64,000 nucleotides of DNA from a virus (lineage: Duplodnaviria > Caudoviricetes): positions 11,047 through 75,046 of the IMG/VR virus record IMGVR_UViG_3300046408_000009; one strand, written 5' to 3'. A program made the position numbers and the translations under genes. Below the pieces are notes generated by a model. The model searched no databases, was not told the DNA's origin, and saw nothing but the letters and a program-made list of their open reading frames with translations. Shown one piece after another: positions 37,002 to 56,465 of the stretch. The number at the start of each line of letters is the position of its first letter. The first letter of the stretch is position 1.

Positions 37002-37040
37002 ATAAATATCATAACATCCTTTTTGCAAATTTGCAAATTT
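37002..37040 (-). promoter_or_regulatory. TTGCAA-N17-TATGAT leaderless promoter with 2 x TTTGCAAA
   Basis: Boxes at 37022-37037; -10 at 37008-37013. Confidence 0.8.
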
Positions 37041-38766: not shown

Positions 38767-39899
38767 GCTTGAAATAATAGACGTGCAGAACAACGTCCCC
38801 TATCTGGACCGTGTCGAGAAATTTCCACCCGACCAAACCATCACCAACTGGTTCCCCGGTCATTAGGCACTGAAACACGAACGTCGCAGAAGACCCCTCT
38901 ACTAAATCTTCGTCCTTCTGTTCAATCCACACTACAACCGAGTCCCGCTGATTTTGTGCCGACAGTACTTGCGACCCCTGCGGAACTATGAACTCAGTGG
39001 GACCTCTGACGGCTAATTGATGTTTGAAAACAACCCTCATCGCGACTCTCTCAATTCCTCAAGGATCGCACGACGCTCCTGTTCGATCTTGTTGAGATCG
39101 ATACCAAAAAATTCCGCGAAGAGTTCTTCGATTCGGGCATGAATCGGCGTCAATTTCGTGTCCTCGTACTCGTCGTACTTGACCCACTCCGCAATGACGA
39201 ATTCCTTTTCGTCACGAAGCCAGTCAACAAAGCGAGTGAGGGTGTCAGCCTCACCGCTCTCAATGACAGCGTGTTGTTTATCAAGTTCTGGTGTGTTGAT
39301 CACTTAGCGTCAACCTTTCCGTTAGCCGTCCACGTAAAGGCGTTAAAGTCCGCCTTCTCTTGCTGAAGCACCGCACTGACGAGCCGGTTCGCTTCGCTCG
39401 TCGCTTCAATCGCGTTGGCGTAGTCGAGCAAAGCACCTTCGACATCAGAACTGAGTCGCAAATGGTGGACCCCGACCGCTTCACGAATCGCACCCCAGGG
39501 TTCGTTGCGTTCCCCGGCGAGACGTTGAATTGCTCGTCCCAGTGCGTTGTTGGCGGAATCCCGGTACGCGGTCCTACCCTCGGCGATGTTCGTGTTCAGC
39601 CACTCAACGACGGCTAACTGCGTAGCATCGTCACAAGCGCGGCGAGCGACCTGTGACAGTTCACTCACGCGACGTCCGTTCTCGTCCACCACGTGCGCGT
39701 CTTGCACATAATACCGCCAGTCACTCAATCCCTGAGAGTGCGTGTACCGGCTGACCTTCTGACTGAACCGAATAGTCTCACCGCGCCAGGTTCCGGAGAA
39801 GTACAAATACACCTCTTCGGTATCAATGGCGAACTGTCGACCAAACTTGATGTGGTGAGAATTCGATCCCTCGAACTTGATGTCCTTGACCTGAGTCAT
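38759..39899 (-). CDS. Three hypothetical early genes (38759-39040, 39037-39303, 39300-39899)
   Basis: Overlapping stop/start junctions; protein-like composition. Confidence 0.6.
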
Positions 39900-40044
39900 T
39901 GTCTATCTTCCTTTTCCTGGTTGTCGGTTTCCTGCTGCACATCTTCACTAACGGGGGGAAATGCTTCTAGCCACGCACACCCCTCGTGGTCCACTTGGTG
40001 CAACTCACACCACATAATCATTTTTGATTCCTTCCTTCGCAGAG

Positions 40045-40074
40045 ATCGTACCTGACTTTTTGCAAATTTGCAAA
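40045..40074 (-). promoter_or_regulatory. TTGCAA-N17-TACGAT promoter with 2 x TTTGCAAA
   Basis: Boxes at 40059-40074; -10 at 40045-40050; followed by SD aaggaagga. Confidence 0.75.
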
Positions 40075-40512
40075 TTAGTGCCCGTACAACTCCTCAGCGA
40101 TCTTGTTGTATTCGCGAGTCTGAACCGAATCGTTGATGATCCAGTGAAGTCCCGCGTAGCACTTTCCCCCGCCGCCGTACGCACCGCGCAAATCACAGTC
40201 TTGCTCGCACTCCACGCACCACCCCGCTGTTCCGGCGCACACCTCACAAAAGTCGGTGACCTTGAGAGACTTGCACCACGCGAGATTGTCGCTGTTCGTG
40301 CATTGGTGATGACGCTCGCAGATTACGAGATACTTACCATCATCTCCGCCCTCGTCCCATACCGTCAAGCCACCCTTGGCGTAAAGCGCACCGTTAGCGT
40401 GGACCGTGCGCGTATGAAACGCGAGTCCAGTACGGAACCCGTTAGGGCGAACAAACTTCGCACCACAGCCCTTCACGGGGCACTTGTAACCAGGGTACCT
40501 AGAAGCGACCAT
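40075..40512 (-). CDS. C2H2-like zinc finger + Cys-rich protein
   Basis: YKCPVKGCGAKF...LAFHTRTVH; SD GAGGAGG. Confidence 0.6.
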   Translation of the reverse strand: MVASRYPGYKCPVKGCGAKFVRPNGFRTGLAFHTRTVHANGALYAKGGLTVWDEGGDDGKYLVICERHHQCTNSDNLAWCKSLKVTDFCEVCAGTAGWCVECEQDCDLRGAYGGGGKCYAGLHWIINDSVQTREYNKIAEELYGH

Positions 40513-40747: not shown

Positions 40748-40787
40748 GTAAGTAAGTGTAGTCGAAAATTTGCAAATTTGCAAATTA

Positions 40788-41398
40788 CTAGGACAACACC
40801 GCCCTTTCGTTCACGTACTTTTCGATGGCGTCAGCGGCCACCCGGAGATCGCGAGCGACCGTCATCAGGTCGGTGCGATTCCACAGGTACTTCGGATTGA
40901 GACCCACGTTCTTCAACTCACGAGCGTTGTTGATTGCCTGTGAGAGACGTCCTCGTAATTCGGTCTTGGTCATCAGTCCATCCTCGATCCCGCGTGAGCA
41001 TTGAGACCATTCTGACGCAGCACCTCCGCGAACGCGCCGCACGCGGCTTCCTTCAATTGCATCGACTGTCCGAATTCAGCGTCACGAGATTCAGAGACGC
41101 AGTCATTACCCCACAACTGCCAACCACCGCCGTACGCGCTAGAGCCGATGCCCCCGCGACCGTACTTGCCGGGTTGTTTCTTGAGCCACGCCACGAACGC
41201 ACCGCGAGCGGGCTTGATGGTGACCCACGCGAACCCGCAGGGACCGCCAGAGCAGTACCATTGTTCACCGGTTGATTCGTCACGAACGACCATCGCACGC
41301 AAGCGCGACTTCTCGTCCTCGTACGCGGCCTGAGCCGCCTTCTGCGCCGCCTGGTAAACCTCAGCGGGGCTTAATTTCTTGGTTTGGGTGTCTGTCAT
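40788..41398 (-). CDS. Two early genes (40973-41398 conserved phage hypothetical; 40788-40973)
   Basis: CGFAWV...QSMQLKEAAC.AFAEVL...SRMD family pattern; leaderless start at 41398. Confidence 0.65.
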
Positions 41399-41476
41399 AT
41401 GAATAACTATAGTGCCAAATTTGCAAATTTGCAAAATATTTTTGCAAATTTGCAAAAAATAAACTACGATATTTAT
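41399..41476. promoter_or_regulatory. Back-to-back divergent leaderless promoters with 4 TTTGCAAA boxes
   Basis: Minus strand TTGCAA-17-TATAGT-7-ATG(41398); plus strand TTGCAA-17-TACGAT-6-ATG(41477). Confidence 0.85.
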
Positions 41477-42221
41477 ATGACAGAAACCATCAATAACCAA
41501 TCCATTCAAACCACTGAAAGGATCACTAGTTTCACCACGGTCAGCGGTTTGACCTTCAGCATTGAGGGGAAGAAATTCGTCACCCGTAAGCCCAAGGGTT
41601 TTCGTGTCGGCTTCAGCGAAGAATTAGCCTGCAGTCACCGCGACATCTCTACCTGTGACCAATGCGCGGGCACCTACGCCAACATCATCGAAGTCTACGG
41701 TACACACTACTGGGTCCGCGACTACAGCGAGTGGTTGGAGCAGGTCCGTGAGTTCGCCCTTCTCGACGCTGAGTACGCGAATGAGGAAACCAATTAATCT
41801 GCAAATTTGCAAAAATCTGCTACAATATCCGTATGAGTGAAACCAGAGAAAGGGTCCCCGTGGCCAAGACAGTGAATCAACAGATTGCCGAATTCTTAGG
41901 TGTGACCGAAGAGGTTGGCGCACGAGTTCGTGACCAGATTGATGAGTTGGGGTTGCTCGACTGGAGCGAATGCACCGACCGAGAATTTAAGGCGGCGTGC
42001 CGTGAAGCATTAGCGGACATCGCCGGATGAAATCACTCCCTCTGGATAGAGAACGATGCCACTACGATGTGACGGGTTACCCCATTGACTTCGAGAACCG
42101 ATGTATGCGACGTGCGCGTTGGGTACTTGAATCACCTACCCACGGCAAACATGAAAATTTTGCACGCAGCACGCCAATCATGGAACGTCATGGGTGGAAG
42201 AATCGAGTTGAATTCAAGTGA
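41477..42221 (+). CDS. Three small plus-strand early genes (41477-41797, 41833-42030, 42027-42221)
   Basis: Two leaderless starts after TACGAT and TACAAT; LACSHRDISTC motif. Confidence 0.6.
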
Positions 42222-42844
42222 TGAAAACACTCGAACTATTCTCCGGCACTGAATCATTCTCCAACGCCGCCCGCGAGCGCGGACACCAAACATTCACATC
42301 GGACTTCGATCCACAATTCGATAGTGACTACACCGTCGACATCATGCAACTCGATACCGCACGTCTCCCGTTCCGACCCGATGTGTTGTGGGCGAGTCCA
42401 CCATGTGAGACATTCAGCGTTGCCAGCCTTGGTCGATATTGGTGGAAGGACGAAGATGGTCTCCACCCTAGGAATGACATCGCTCGCGCGGGTATCGCCC
42501 GCGTCGAGAGAACGTTAGAGATCATCGATGAGTTACAACCAAAAGTCTGGATTATCGAGAACCCCCGTGGGGCACTGCGCAAGATGAAATTCATGCAGGA
42601 CTTTGCACGATACACCGTGACCTATTGCCAATATGGTGACGTCCGGATGAAGCCCACGGACCTGTGGTCGAATGTTGATGATCTCGTATTCAAACCGATT
42701 TGCAAAAACGGGGCACCGTGTCATATCGCTGCACCTCGCGGAAGTCAGACTGGAACGCAGGGACCTAAAAGTTACCTTGAGAAGTCTCGTGTCCCACATC
42801 AACTGTGTGTGTGTGTGGTCCAACAATTCGAGGAAAGGATGTGA
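42218..42844 (+). CDS. Compact C5-cytosine DNA methyltransferase-like protein
   Basis: LELFSG (motif I), WASPPC (IV), IIENP (VI), YCQYG...KPTDLW. Confidence 0.85.
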   Translation: MMKTLELFSGTESFSNAARERGHQTFTSDFDPQFDSDYTVDIMQLDTARLPFRPDVLWASPPCETFSVASLGRYWWKDEDGLHPRNDIARAGIARVERTLEIIDELQPKVWIIENPRGALRKMKFMQDFARYTVTYCQYGDVRMKPTDLWSNVDDLVFKPICKNGAPCHIAAPRGSQTGTQGPKSYLEKSRVPHQLCVCVVQQFEERM

Positions 42845-43032
42845 TGGACGAGTTCACTGAACGCCACCTCGCCCGCTGGATCGACGCCAGCGTGTACGAG
42901 GATGATCGGGCGCAATTCCACGCGTACGCGACCCGATGCATTAACGACGATCCGACGTACGACTGGAACTACCCCAGCCTGTACCGATCATTTCTACTTC
43001 AACAAAAAACCAACAAGAAAGAGACCACATGA
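42844..43032 (+). CDS. Small hypothetical protein
   Basis: Coupled between the MTase and the membrane protein gene. Confidence 0.5.
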   Translation: MDEFTERHLARWIDASVYEDDRAQFHAYATRCINDDPTYDWNYPSLYRSFLLQQKTNKKETT

Positions 43033-43442
43033 CTGAAAGAATTGCAACGTCCACTCGACACCGTACGGCGAGAATCATCGCCGCCGCGATTGTGATTGGC
43101 ATCTTCATCGCCATCGTTTCATCCGTGAGTTCTCACGGCGGTGGAGGCCCCTACAGCGCCCAGGTGACGAGCGTGACGCCGCTGCAGGGTCCCGGTAACT
43201 ACGTGCGCGTCGACTACACCGTGACCAACGCGGGGAGTGCGTCGGGGTCACCGTCGTGCCAGATCGACATCCAACTCAACGACGTGAACGGCAACCCCAT
43301 GGCCAGTGGATCGGACGCGATGTCGGGGACCAACACCGTCCCGGCCCACGGCTCGCAGGCGTTCTACGCCGATATCGTGGTGACGAATAACGACGCGTTC
43401 TACGTGACTAACCCGTCGATGGTGACTATCAGCGGGTGCTGA
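43029..43442 (+). CDS. Membrane-anchored Ig-like (FxLYD-like) protein
   Basis: N-terminal TM; VDYTVTNAG...CQIDIQL.D.NG...VPAHGS beta-sandwich. Confidence 0.7.
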   Translation: MTERIATSTRHRTARIIAAAIVIGIFIAIVSSVSSHGGGGPYSAQVTSVTPLQGPGNYVRVDYTVTNAGSASGSPSCQIDIQLNDVNGNPMASGSDAMSGTNTVPAHGSQAFYADIVVTNNDAFYVTNPSMVTISGC

Positions 43443-43445
43443 CGG

Positions 43446-43610
43446 CAAAGAACCCCTGACCGCTGAGTCAGGGGTTCTCCGCCAGCGTTTAGGCATCGCC
43501 ACTCCAGAAGCCTTCAGCGATCAATTAGGAAGAACTGCAACACCATCCAAAGGCTGATCCCAGAGTGTTCCTACACCCGTCGCAGTTGTCAATTGATCGT
43601 TTTCCGGCTT
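43446..43610 (-). ncRNA. Candidate structured small RNA (about 160 nt)
   Basis: Own promoter TTGCAT-17-TATGAT (43645-43617); nested stems CGAUCAAUU/AAUUGAUCG and AACUGCGAC/GUUGCAGUU closing two hairpins; terminator at the 3' end; no credible ORF. Confidence 0.65.
43449..43478. terminator. 12-bp hairpin, probable bidirectional terminator
   Basis: AGAACCCCTGAC-cgctga-GTCAGGGGTTCT between convergent transcription units. Confidence 0.8.
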
Positions 43611-43673
43611 GCAGAAATCATAGTTGATGGTTACTGCAAATGCAAATCTAACTTACGGGATCGTCGGGTGGGT

Positions 43674-44188
43674 TCATGATCGAAACTTGTGGTCGTAGAC
43701 GTTGTTGGCTGTTCCGGGGGTGTGCCAGATACTCTCTCGTACGTCATCACACCCACGGTATGTACATTTTGCGTCCGGGTCCTCAACGGCCAGCGGTGCA
43801 TTGATAATTTGCAGAATAGCGTCACGTTCATTCGCCGTCAACACATTAGAAAATTTCGAATTCTCGATCACTGCACGAATGGCGTCGAGTTTAGAAATTT
43901 GTTCGTTGTCGTTCATAGTGGCTTACCGCACGCTGGGCAGAAATTATACCCGTCGCTCTTCCATATTTTGTGCGATGCACTGTTTTGGTACCAACACTTC
44001 AACAGATCACGAGTCATTACGACGTCCTCAATTCGTTGCATAAACATCTGCGCATCGTCGGGTGTTGAAAATCCTCGAACCGTTAGGGTGACGTTTGCGC
44101 AAAATCCGTCGAGACGTTCATCAACCGCGTAGGGGACAATACTTTCGTCACGCGGGTTGGCGCGTCCGAATTCGTCCCATTCCATCAT
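43674..44188 (-). CDS. Two small hypothetical genes (43674-43916 and 43913-44188)
   Basis: ATGA-coupled; Cys/His ends. Confidence 0.55.
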
Positions 44189-44829
44189 GGATTCGCTTTC
44201 TTAAACTGTTGCGCGAACTTCTGGCTACAGAGACTTCGAAGATCGGCGTCGGTGTGTACAGAATCTACAAACGGCGCGAACTCTTTTATGCGATGCACCA
44301 TGCTTTTATGTTCAACGGACAGTGCCGGTTTTCTCCCCGGTCGCTTCCAGAACGAATCAATTTTGTTAGGAACTTCTTCAAAGGTTTTGTATAGTTTAGG
44401 TGGTGGATTAAACACTCCCCATAGTGCCGTCTTTTTAGTCCAGGGACTTCCGTATTCATAGGGTTGATATGTCCAATCAGGCTTCCCTAGGAAATCACGC
44501 AGACGCCCCGTGGCCGGGTTTTCGATCACCCACCAGACGGGTGACGATGCGTCGATAATTCGTAGACACTCATTGACCAATGCCATTCCATTTTCAGGAC
44601 TACGCGCCTTCCCGCCTTGACGAGCGGTGGAAAACTCTGTACAGACCGGATTGGCAATAATTCCGTGAACCTCCTGAGGAGGGCAATAGTTTTCAACTCC
44701 TATATCTTTCCCGATGCGAATGACGTGATAATCAGGATCAACTTGGTAAGGCCACGAATCGCTGCCCGTGTCCGCGCATAGATGAAGAATTGTTTTCAAT
44801 TTCGTCTTTCGTCTTTCGTCTCTGGTCAT
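44185..44829 (-). CDS. Second compact C5-MTase-like protein
   Basis: ILHLCAD, IANPVCTEFS, WWVIENP, YGSPWTKKTALWG; start set at the ATGA overlap 44829. Confidence 0.75.
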   Translation of the reverse strand: MTRDERRKTKLKTILHLCADTGSDSWPYQVDPDYHVIRIGKDIGVENYCPPQEVHGIIANPVCTEFSTARQGGKARSPENGMALVNECLRIIDASSPVWWVIENPATGRLRDFLGKPDWTYQPYEYGSPWTKKTALWGVFNPPPKLYKTFEEVPNKIDSFWKRPGRKPALSVEHKSMVHRIKEFAPFVDSVHTDADLRSLCSQKFAQQFKKANP

Positions 44830-45143: not shown

Positions 45144-45263
45144 GGTTCGAGTGTAGCAGGTTTTTGCAGATTGCAAATACAAAACCCTCACCAACTTTTG
45201 AGCCAGAGGCTCAGGTCGATGAGGGTTCTGCCTTATCAGCGTAGCACCTGGGAACTTTCGCAT

Positions 45264-45584
45264 TTACGGACGCGGTTTACGGACCCGAATCTTCTCGCCG
45301 TTACGCGGAGTGGGGACGGAATGTCCCAGCGCGATGGCCTCGATGCGCCGCGCGAGCCACGTCGAATTCTGCGCCCACTCGCGAGCGTTCTGGTGGCCCT
45401 TGCGTGAGTTGCAGGGGTAGCACGCCGCCACGAGATTATGCAGCGCCTGCGTGCCGCCGTGCTTGACCGCGAGCACGTGATCAACGGTGGACGTCTCGCG
45501 CGTGATCGATACGCCGCACCAGTAGCAGCGCCCACCGCTGAGTTGAAATATTTGCAACTTGCGAGACCGCTTCACGTAGGACAT
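45264..45584 (-). CDS. HNH endonuclease
   Basis: RCYWCG...TVDHVLA...GG...NLVAACYPCNSRKG; start set at MSYVKR. Confidence 0.9.
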   Translation of the reverse strand: MSYVKRSRKLQIFQLSGGRCYWCGVSITRETSTVDHVLAVKHGGTQALHNLVAACYPCNSRKGHQNAREWAQNSTWLARRIEAIALGHSVPTPRNGEKIRVRKPRP

Positions 45585-45663
45585 CGATTGAGCATATCCG
45601 GGGAGGTCCGCAGTCCCCACCGCCCATCCCCGTGAAGTGGGGACCGCAGACGCGCAGAGTGTA

Positions 45664-46908
45664 TCAGTGTTGGGGGTCCGCCGCTTGTGCAATCCGACCT
45701 TCGATAATTGGGTAGTAGTCCTCAGTGATCTCACAGCCCACCCACTCGAATCCTTCGAGGATCGCTGCCGCCGCCGTCGTGCCGGAACCCAAGAATGGAT
45801 CGAGCACTTTGCCACCCGGTGGCGTCACGAGGTTGATGAGGTAGCGCATTAGTGCGAGCGGCTTGACGGTGGGGTGGTGGTTCTTGTCCTCGACTCCAGC
45901 ACTTCGTTCGGACTTGCTGGCTTTAGCGCAATAGAAGAATCGAGCAGCGGAACCATCGTCGTTGTACTCAGTACCCGTTGCTGTCATCCCCCAGCCTTTT
46001 CCATTTGCACCACTGCGCGGTTTACCTTTACGTGACGGTTTTACTGATGGGAATGCGTTGAGCACTTCGTCGCTACCGTCGTGGATGATGTTGGCGGGCC
46101 ATCGGCCCTCCGGCAGTTCATAGCGGGTGGCAGCGCCCTTACTGTAAACTCCGTTTGCGCCAATGGTTCCAACGGTGTGTGGGTTCTTTGCATAAATCGA
46201 ATCATCCTTGGATTCAATCAGTACGCGTGAGGCGTCAATGTTCAGTGCCCCCGTACCATACTCCAAAACGTTCTTCACCACCGTCCCGACGAGGGGCTTC
46301 CGAGCGACGACGATTGGTTCGTGAGCGGGCTTGAGCGCCGTACCCCAGCCTTGCCATTTTTGTGCGTCGGGTGTCGATTCGCCCTTGCGAGTGAGTTGGT
46401 TGTTTGTGTTGTTGTACCCTCCGGCACCATCTGGGTTCATGAACCCAACACCGCTCGCAGGTTTCGATGTGAACTCAACACCAGCCGACTTGTCGATGGC
46501 CTTGGATACGTCCATAGACTTCGGGAACCCCGAGCCATACAGCCACATGATCTGATCGCGTATCTCAAACCCCGCATCCTCGATTGAACTGGCGATTCGG
46601 TGATAGGTTCGCGATCCACCAAACGCGAGCAAGTGACCACCCGGCTTCAAGACGCGCAGGGCTTCGACCCAGAGAGCGACATTATAGGCGATTCCCGAAT
46701 TGTCCCAGGATTTTCCCATAAAGCCGAGTTCGTAGGGTGGATCGGTGACGATGGAATCGACACTGTTAGCGTCGAGCGTCTTTAGTAGAACGAGGCAGTC
46801 ACCCCGGAGTAGTCCTACTTGCAAATGTTGGTCCGGCGGTCCCACCCAAAAATCATCTTCGTCGTACTCGTCAACATCGATCAAAACTGCGGGTTCGTCG
46901 TTCGTCAT
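45664..46908 (-). CDS. N4/N6 DNA methyltransferase (beta class)
   Basis: VTDPPY, LKPGGHL, HPTVKPLALM, VLDPFLGSGTT. Confidence 0.95.
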   Translation of the reverse strand: MTNDEPAVLIDVDEYDEDDFWVGPPDQHLQVGLLRGDCLVLLKTLDANSVDSIVTDPPYELGFMGKSWDNSGIAYNVALWVEALRVLKPGGHLLAFGGSRTYHRIASSIEDAGFEIRDQIMWLYGSGFPKSMDVSKAIDKSAGVEFTSKPASGVGFMNPDGAGGYNNTNNQLTRKGESTPDAQKWQGWGTALKPAHEPIVVARKPLVGTVVKNVLEYGTGALNIDASRVLIESKDDSIYAKNPHTVGTIGANGVYSKGAATRYELPEGRWPANIIHDGSDEVLNAFPSVKPSRKGKPRSGANGKGWGMTATGTEYNDDGSAARFFYCAKASKSERSAGVEDKNHHPTVKPLALMRYLINLVTPPGGKVLDPFLGSGTTAAAAILEGFEWVGCEITEDYYPIIEGRIAQAADPQH

Positions 46909-47159: not shown

Positions 47160-47257
47160 TTGACCGGGTGGGATTCGAACCCACGTGACCCTCGCCGTCG
47201 CTCGGACCATCACCTACGTTGGGTGTCCCTTTTTGACCAGACTCCGGGCACCGACAA
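47160..47257 (-). tRNA. Degenerate tRNA-like element (class II body, non-canonical anticodon arm)
   Basis: Perfect T arm GTGGG-TTCGAAT-CCCAC; Tyr-like D arm TG-CCC...GGTC...GGG-A; bulged acceptor stem TTGTCGG/CCGGTCAA; CACC-CAACGTA-GGTG anticodon hairpin; no encoded CCA. Confidence 0.5.
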
Positions 47258-49046: not shown

Positions 49047-49469
49047 TCAAGGGGTGGTGGTCGGTGTGAGGAGTTCGATGGTGCGATCCGCTTCACCACT
49101 ACCATCCTCACCCTCGAACCTCATGCTGACCTGTGACTGGTCGTTGAACACCACCACCACATCGTGACCTAGGACGTGCCTGATCTTGTCGACTCGAACG
49201 ATGTCAGCGCGGTTCTGCAAACAAACCATCCGCAGGGTCAGAAACGTCATCATGGTGTCTCGATTCGTCAGTGTCTTTTGCAATTTGCAGAATTAATCAA
49301 GGAGTGGTATTTTACCTCAGCCTGAAAAAGCATGCCTTGCCTAGTGATGGCGATCTCGTGGCTTCACGGGCCATACGGCCAGCACCGCGCTCACCAGCAG
49401 CGCGATCACCAGGCACACGAAGGGTCCAATCACGAGCACGGCCAGCAATAACCACATCCACCAGGGCAT
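49047..49469 (-). CDS. Two small genes (49047-49253; 49341-49469, a 42-aa TM peptide)
   Basis: The TM peptide reads MPWWMWLLLAVLVIGPFVCLVIALLVSAVLAVWPVKPRDRHH* (my translation). Confidence 0.55.
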
Positions 49470-51457: not shown

Positions 51458-51732
51458 GGGATGGCTCCTTTAGTAGTGCGTACGTATCTTATTGCAAAAA
51501 CTGTTAATTTGCAAATATCAGCACGATCACCGCGACCACGATGAGCGACAGTGCGAACAGTCCGTGCTTCTGTTCCCAGGTCATGTCAACCGAAACTGAC
51601 TCAGCGGCACGTCCGGAGTATCCTCACCGCAGTAACCACAGTGGTGCCCACCCTGGTGCGTGCGGCCCGGTCGAGCACACTGGTGCGGTGCTTCGCACAC
51701 CTCGCAGTACCCCCACTCTGTTTTGCATTCGC

Positions 51733-54869: not shown

Positions 54870-54906
54870 ACGATCATCCTAATCTGGTTTTTGCAAATTT
54901 GCAAAT

Positions 54907-55430
54907 TTACTTTTTCTCCGTCACCAAGGTGACTATCGCGCACAGCACGATGGACAGAATCACGAACACGGCAAGCGCCAGCGCGTCATCCGTGTTGGGT
55001 GTCTTCGACCCCAGCGTGTACCAGGACCAGTGCGCGTCATCGACGTGCACCCACTCCGCGACGAGAAACGCGGTGAACAGTGAGAGGAGATATCCGAGTA
55101 CGCGCCTCATGATACGAACCGATTGACGTAGCGAACCACGTCAAACAATTCCAACAGTGGTCTCTCGGTGGAACTGGTGGGTCCGATGTCCTTGCCCACG
55201 CTCCAATCTTCCGAGCGTTGAGCAGCACGCTGGATATCGTTCTGGTCAAGATAGCCAATAGCCAACCTTGCATCTCCGCGACGAATCAGGTTGGCCCGTC
55301 TCTCGCACTCGGCACATCCGTCGAACCAAATCTGTCGTTCGTCATATCCCGGCAGTTGTTGGTGGTAATCATGTACCATCAGTCGTTTCCTCTCGCATCT
55401 GCATGCACCCATCCCGCGCCAAGACTCCAA
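54907..55430 (-). CDS. 2-TM protein (54907-55110) and HDYHQ family copy 2 (55107-55430 or shorter)
   Basis: Hydrophobic helices; HDYHQQLPG...DGCAECERR. Confidence 0.6.
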
Positions 55431-56362: not shown

Positions 56363-56465
56363 ATGAATATCGTAGCCTCATTTTTGCAAATTTGCAATTA
56401 TTTTTTGCAAAAACTTTTGCAAATATGTGTCAGGTGATCCTGCAAATCAGTGATATGATCACCAA
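56363..56465. promoter_or_regulatory. Divergent promoter region with several TTTGCAA(A) boxes
   Basis: Minus strand TTGCAA-17-TACGAT; plus strand extended -10 TGATATGAT at 56451-56459; boxes at 56383, 56391, 56404, 56416. Confidence 0.8.

Follow-up and report, generated by a model that had tools for sequence, protein, structure and literature searches.

The 231-nt gap at 43443-43673, between two convergent transcription units of a soil phage, is tentatively interpreted here as a transcribed cassette that carries a start-less or cryptic micro-gene, or a gene remnant, a reading to which we assign a probability of about 0.4. The cassette is built like the leaderless early genes of the same phage, its frame has no usable start codon, and it is probably still transcribed. 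The frame would be a micro-gene that is decaying or cryptic, or else a C-terminal part that was cut off from the adjacent 80-aa gene. An earlier note on this DNA had described the same stretch as a dedicated structured small RNA with its own promoter and terminator. Our results indicate that the architecture is real and that a novel structured RNA is unproven at this locus.

Genomic setting of the locus

The window, i.e., the whole 64-kb stretch of DNA that was analyzed, spans bases 11047-75046 of an IMG/VR virus record, which is 75,046 bp long and carries direct terminal repeats. The terminase is ~40% identical to the terminases of Streptomyces phages, and the primase/helicase presents 26-30% identity to its counterparts in Micrococcus, Microbacterium and Mycobacterium phages. 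These identities suggest that the virus is a distant, uncultivated actinophage-like phage. It was present in two soil metagenome DNA runs, and the copy of the second run, whose contigs have no coverage of 43605-43711, was identical. Among the listed runs, no RNA sequencing run contained the phage, both carriers being soil DNA.

The locus sits in an early-type region with three DNA methyltransferases and an HNH endonuclease, which lie within 5 kb of each other (42218-42844 on the plus strand and 44185-44760, 45664-46908 and 45264-45815 on the minus strand). Two of the methyltransferases, encoded on opposite strands, are distant paralogues of PHROG 757 (32% identity) and the third is of the N6/N4 type. 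The genes of a minus-strand operon, which begins at a cassette promoter near 45150, specify a 105-aa protein, a methyltransferase, a 91-aa zinc-ribbon protein and an 80-aa orphan. Convergent with it lies a plus-strand island of 2 kb (41441-43442), which ends with the gene for a 137-aa protein. The features of the locus and of its two flanking genes are as follows:

43674-43916, minus strand: 80-aa orphan gene, last of the minus-strand operon, with a positive coding score
43617-43645, minus strand: promoter-like site TTGCAT-N17-TATGAT, with tandem TTTGCA boxes at 43635-43646
43608-43610, minus strand: predicted transcript start at codon 1 (AAG), placed by alignment to the cassette
43521-43610, minus strand: 29-codon open frame, with codon 1 at 43610, the last codon ending at 43524 and TGA at 43523-43521
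43518-43599, minus strand: predicted branched fold with a three-way junction, whose two stems are found in the MFE and centroid structures
43590-43599 with 43518-43527, minus strand: stem 1, 10 bp
43579-43587 with 43533-43541, minus strand: stem 2, 9 bp including one G-U pair
43563-43578, minus strand: hairpin 1, solid
43542-43558, minus strand: hairpin 2, weak (4+2 pairs with bulges)
43479-43517, minus strand: mostly unpaired 39-nt spacer or tail, running from the stop codon, or from the fold, to the terminator
43444-43483, minus strand: intrinsic-terminator-type hairpin, with a perfect 12-bp core at 43449-43478
43029-43442, plus strand: convergent 137-aa gene, last of the 2-kb island

The 80-aa protein was a singleton in a comparison with 5.8 billion proteins. 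The 137-aa protein, which by eye presents an N-terminal hydrophobic segment and a beta-rich domain, has 54 homologues in a library of 1.84 billion proteins and no match to a Pfam or PHROG family. Its relatives include giant proteins in which the domain is repeated up to 18 times (P0004, 3562 aa). The 137-aa gene obtained a coding score of +31, and its end at 43442 agrees with the earlier statement that the proposed RNA converges on a downstream gene. An 84-aa ORF on the opposite strand (43248-43502, minus), preceded by GGAG-N5-ATG, was rejected as it is antisense to this real gene and its codon score is -20.

A promoter-like site related to the promoter cassette of the phage

The phage possesses a promoter cassette, TTTGCAAATTTGCAAAAA-N6-TAnnnT, in about ten copies:

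Cassette copies: 37008-37039, 40045-40076, 40755-40786, 41406-41470, 41795-41826
Further cassette copies: 45150-45181, 51486-51517, 54876-54907, 56369-56400

The 16-mer of the cassette is a perfect palindrome. Most cassettes drive leaderless genes, with ATGACAGA located 6-7 nt past the -10 box, and two copies differ by having leaders with strong AAGGAG or GGAAGGA sites. Two of the cassettes stand back to back at 41386-41495 and drive divergent genes. Of all predicted structures in the window, that of this segment is the most stable, on both strands alike (GC-corrected z about -7). Since the cassette boxes are palindromic, they could have mediated an inversion of the plus-strand island 41441-43442.

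The minus-strand promoter reported in the earlier note was found exactly where it had been placed: a -35-type TTGCAT at 43645-43640, a 17-nt spacer and TATGAT at 43622-43617. As in the cassette, 17 nt separate a -35 box of the TTGCAA type from a TAnnnT -10 box. The cassette, however, has tandem palindromic TTTGCAAA boxes with a period of 8 nt followed by an A-rich spacer, whereas the site at 43645 reads TTTGCATTTGCAGTAACC, with a period of 6 nt, broken palindromes and no A-run. The -35-proximal box and the -10 box are in register with the cassette, with the second box displaced (TTTGCATTTGCA). Scored on a matrix derived from the ten other sites, the 43645 site obtained 2.6 bits (rank 74), as compared with 17-45 bits for those ten sites themselves. 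The idea that the region has its own cassette promoter is therefore borne out for the two hexamers and their spacing but not for the overall match to the cassette, which is poor. Generic sigma-70-like promoter matches occur in the region at chance frequency (five found versus 3.9 expected). Close same-strand pairs of TTTGCA are restricted to the cassette promoters, to 49277/49284 and to the 43645 site. Based on these motifs, we accept the site as a likely degenerate member of the cassette family of the phage and its promoter as putative.

An open frame in the position of a leaderless gene

Downstream of this site, the body of the locus reads like a small gene that lacks its start codon, a feature that had not been observed before. 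Codon 1 of the 29-codon frame lies 6 nt past TATGAT, a spot that is occupied by ATG in six of the eight leaderless cassette genes. This codon, AAG, is one substitution away from ATG. The frame contains neither ATG nor GTG, such that the ATG or GTG at the first base that marks a leaderless start is missing. Its first canonical start is a TTG at 43590-43592, located inside stem 1 and preceded by a Shine-Dalgarno match of 4 nt at best (GGAAA-type).

The codon log-odds of the frame is +7.45, a value reached by 33% of long-gene windows and by 1.1% of short open frames. We also scored the frame with a 3-periodic second-order Markov model, using leave-one-gene-out coding windows and stop-free wrong frames in long genes as controls. 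The resulting log-odds of +5.09 equals the median of the cross-validated coding windows, and 2.1% of the stop-free wrong-frame controls attain it. The signal is modest and was found post hoc after many features had been inspected. The other five frames across the body yielded Markov log-odds of -8 to -20. The frame thus presents the coding statistics of this genome, as would be expected of a leaderless gene. Its GC3 of 0.34 is below the range of 0.45-0.79 observed for real genes, and the coding signal is already slightly positive across the codons of the promoter.

The 29-codon frame continues the phase of the upstream 80-aa gene, from which only two stop codons separate it (TGA at 43674-43676 and TAA at 43653-43655). 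Because of this shared phase, a truncated C-terminal part of the 80-aa gene represents an alternative origin for the frame. The earlier statement that no credible ORF exists between promoter and terminator is accurate with regard to canonical ORFs, but it overlooked this start-less frame, which fills the body with normal coding statistics. No homologue of the deduced peptide was found. The tblastn matches of the peptide in Cheoctovirus mycobacteriophages (E = 7-10) were rejected, as they are antisense to annotated genes.

Terminator and spacing

The 12-bp terminator hairpin at 43449-43478 was confirmed as a perfect core that can be extended to 43444-43483. When extended, the stem reaches 15-18 bp, and its U-rich tail on the minus strand, UUCUUUG, lies partly inside the extended stem. 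The hairpin resembles the other minus-strand terminators of the phage and is absent from the list produced by a strict consensus scan. It starts 2-7 nt past the stop codon of the 137-aa gene, where the convergent units meet.

In three other minus-strand genes, the stop codon is 17-35 nt away from the terminator. The stop codon of the 80-aa gene is ~190 nt away from the hairpin, which indicates that ~150 nt of extra sequence is present relative to these genes. The stop codon of the 29-codon frame lies 37-42 nt before the terminator, close to or slightly above the spacing observed elsewhere. The 3' tail, which had been estimated at about 40 nt, measures 39 nt.

Predicted fold of the body

The two nested 9-bp stems that close a three-way junction, as proposed in the earlier note, were recovered in the MFE and centroid structures, with stem 1 extending to 10 bp. 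Of the two inner hairpins, the first is well formed while the second is not as strong as had been described. Stem 1 contains the palindromes CAATTG and GATC.

The 167-nt RNA including the terminator has a z-score of -4.24. Once the terminator is removed, the z-score of the body is -2.31 (4 of 200 shuffles were as good) and that of the 84-nt element bounded at stem 1 is -3.13 (1 of 200 shuffles). The z-score of the full RNA thus comes mostly from the 15-18 bp helix of the terminator. The plus strand of the body has a z-score of -3.14, which is equal to or better than that of the minus strand. The minus-strand fold is 4.4 kcal/mol more stable than its plus-strand counterpart, owing to three G-U pairs. 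We then compared the body, with GC correction, to the 110-nt windows taken from the two strands along the entire 64 kb (8520 windows): the body ranked 295th and the terminator windows were among the top 25. The fold is therefore present, but at a level that is reached by 3-4% of the genome and that is not specific to one strand, rather than at a strand-specific folding energy far beyond the genomic background. Together with a body that resembles coding or formerly coding sequence in leaderless phase, this result speaks against the dedicated structured sRNA that had been proposed.

Searches for relatives, families and targets

No homologous locus was found among the phage records, IMG/VR contigs, metagenome contigs and protein clusters that were searched. 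Positions 43000-44200 had no blastn match in 50,697 phage records, and IMG/VR searches using the 80-aa, 137-aa, 91-aa and 105-aa neighbors yielded no relatives. The relatives of two of the methyltransferases presented no synteny with the locus and no match to the RNA, the homologues of the 137-aa protein were found in unrelated contexts with no homologous locus, and scans of genome contigs with the 137-aa gene and with the Rpf-like gene gave no match. The 139-aa gene at 40973-41392 has homologues with 60-67% identity in phage contigs, whose overlap with this phage is limited to that gene and a small number of distant genes.

A scan of IMG/VR and metagenome contigs for the cassette motif identified no contig spanning the locus. 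Two short metagenome contigs bear the same cassette, at L112:1713-1760 (minus strand) and L191:783-830 (plus strand), with a leaderless ATG 6 nt past the -10 box, and L112 presents weak protein similarity to window positions 39813-40512. Public metagenomes therefore contain distant relatives of the phage. Another group of contigs (L094, L100, L109, L110, L131, L142, L170 and L171) contains the same 16-mer in a different setting: a conserved stretch of ~40 nt (CTACTTATTATTTGCAAATTTGCAAAYAAGG...) that is found every 600-770 nt. This group is unrelated to the phage at the protein level.

The earlier note had not been able to assign the RNA to a known family, and our Rfam 15 search is in agreement, as the whole window gave no match at gathering thresholds to any family, 6S RNA, actinobacterial sRNAs, ribozymes and riboswitches included. 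At E <= 10, the only match within 43400-43700 was to a miRNA model, which scored 14 bits (gathering score 100) on the hairpin of the terminator. ARAGORN called no tRNA or tmRNA at the locus; its sole call in the window is a 91-nt tRNA-Arg with anticodon ACG at 47160-47250 on the minus strand. Readings as a hammerhead or other ribozyme, as 6S RNA or as a tRNA-like element were rejected since no model supported them. A single-sequence covariance model (R1) gave no hit in the genome other than itself, and none in 100 fetched loci. Finally, stretches of the phage's own genome that are complementary to the RNA were no longer than 13 nt (E = 0.14), which is not above chance.

Discussion

The sequence elements, the phase and coding statistics of the frame and the orientation of the terminator are direct observations, and they can be connected into a proposed course of events. 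A host sigma-A-type RNA polymerase would start near 43610, 6-7 nt past TATGAT, provided that the promoter is active, and read-through from the upstream minus-strand operon would also enter the region. Transcription would then cross the 29-codon frame, in which AAG stands where the sister cassettes have ATG, presumably with no translation. It would stop at the hairpin 43444-43483, which would also separate the convergent units, and the likely product, an RNA, would be about 130-165 nt long. The stems of this RNA would constitute ordinary background structure of the genome rather than a selected fold.

Several observations argue for a micro-gene that has lost its start or for a gene remnant. Both promoter boxes deviate from the cassette, which fits with decay. 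In addition, AAG occupies the position of ATG, the coding statistics are gene-like, the spacing from stop codon to terminator is close to that of other genes, the frame shares its phase with the 80-aa gene, and the fold is neither exceptional nor strand-specific. Counted against this reading are the absence of ATG and GTG, the modest signal, the low GC3, the lack of a peptide homologue, the z-score of -3.1 of the 84-nt element and the G-U pairs that favor the minus strand. The comparison rests on a single genome.

A genuine non-coding sRNA, expressed from its own promoter, sharing the terminator in the manner of bacterial 3'-UTR sRNAs and acting through its fold or its 39-nt tail on a partner from host or phage, is a possible but doubtful alternative. 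A cassette-related promoter-like site faces the minus-strand terminator at a distance of 130-165 nt with no canonical ORF between them, ~190 nt separates the upstream stop codon from the terminator as compared with 17-35 nt elsewhere, and intergenic small non-coding RNAs have been documented in the actinophages D29, L5 and StarStuff (PMC5712189). On the structural side, z-scores of -2.3 to -3.1 and G-U pairs favoring the minus strand count in favor of such an RNA, but the body ranks only 295 of 8520 and the plus strand scores equally well or better. Moreover, we identified no Rfam family even at E <= 10, no paralogue, no homologue and no complementarity to the phage genome beyond 13 nt (E = 0.14), and the body presents gene-like coding statistics in the leaderless phase. 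If the locus encodes an sRNA, a frame in leaderless phase, median coding statistics and a near-ATG codon must all have arisen by coincidence, with a joint probability that we roughly estimate at 10^-3 to 10^-2 after adjusting for hindsight. If it is a coding relic, the only coincidence is a fold at the 3% level. We consider the prior odds of these two readings to be roughly similar and, because the coincidences that they require differ, we favor the start-less micro-gene over the sRNA. The two readings are not fully exclusive, as a decayed gene can become an sRNA. A more specific proposal is that the 84-nt three-way junction represents a new family of structured phage RNA, derived from a decayed micro-gene, expressed early from a regulator-independent variant of the cassette promoter, and binding a protein of host or phage as a decoy or in anti-defense; we consider this proposal rather unlikely.

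The remaining explanations differ mainly in how they treat the start codon, the promoter-like site and the inverted repeats. The frame may still be translated, as a 23-aa micro-protein that would start at TTG 43592 on a short-leader mRNA, with stem 1 pairing the start and stop regions and limiting translation. The frame has coding-like statistics, it is bracketed by promoter and terminator, and its first bases, TTGACA, resemble the ATGACA with which the sister genes start. This micro-protein nevertheless seems improbable, since its ribosome-binding match is weak and GGAAA-type as compared with AAGGAG or GGAAGGA in the other leadered genes, its start codon is buried in a 10-bp helix, and no homologue was found. 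Alternatively, the region may simply be a long 3' UTR, or it may insulate two convergent operons from each other; the promoter-like site would then be inactive or a leftover operator, and hairpins would help to stop polymerases from both sides. The hairpin is located exactly at the meeting point of the plus and minus units, generic promoter-like matches are at chance frequency (5 versus 3.9 expected), and the site reaches only 2.6 bits on the cassette matrix with its palindromic TTTGCAAA boxes broken. However, a tandem TTTGCA combined with a correctly spaced TATGAT is unlikely to occur by chance (we estimate that the 12-mer is expected ~0.01 times in the genome of this phage), and close TTTGCA pairs are otherwise found at cassette promoters and at 49277/49284, so we regard this explanation as unlikely. 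Finally, the inverted repeats might act at the level of DNA, as a protein-binding site, a recombination site or the remnant of a small mobile element. This would be consistent with repeats whose score is no worse on the plus strand and with the palindromes CAATTG and GATC of stem 1, but it appears very improbable given that neither the genome nor the 100 fetched loci searched with the covariance model contained a second copy, that no flanking direct repeats were seen by eye and that no recombinase gene is adjacent.

To our knowledge, almost no regulatory RNAs are known in the little-known lineage of soil actinophage-like phages; this lineage would gain an sRNA if the RNA proves to be real and has a function. 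For the present, the value of the locus is mostly cautionary: a promoter, a fold and a terminator that lack an ATG can equally be a gene minus its start codon. Phase and coding statistics, evaluated against the genome's own leaderless genes, discriminate between these readings better than the fold does.

Comparison with known systems

The 3'-UTR-derived sRNAs DapZ and MicL have their own promoter at or after the end of the upstream gene and share the terminator of the mRNA. sRNAs of this type present conserved seeds, known targets and a dependence on Hfq. The layout of promoter and terminator at our locus is similar, but no target complementarity was found within the phage genome. Phage morons are inserted units of promoter, gene and terminator with an intact protein gene. 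Our locus is likewise a self-contained promoter-terminator unit between the genes of another operon, but it has no start codon.

In the mycobacteriophages D29, L5 and StarStuff, intergenic small non-coding RNAs were seen by RNA-seq and Northern blot (PMC5712189). These RNAs likewise correspond to short, non-coding-looking stretches between actinophage genes, with no function assigned. Their expression was observed, whereas the locus described here is known from its sequence and shares no blastn similarity with the 50,697 phage records.

A further comparison is with the phage's own leaderless cassettes (for example 37008, 41406, 54876 and 56369, minus strand). The locus differs from them by a box period of 6 nt instead of 8 nt, by the loss of the palindrome and of the A-rich spacer, by AAG instead of ATG or GTG as codon 1, and by its length of 29 codons as compared with 65-141. 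It shares with them a TTGCA-type -35 box inside TTTGCA, a 17-nt spacer, a TAnnnT box, a gene-like frame that begins 6 nt past the -10 box, a short spacer and a terminator-type hairpin.
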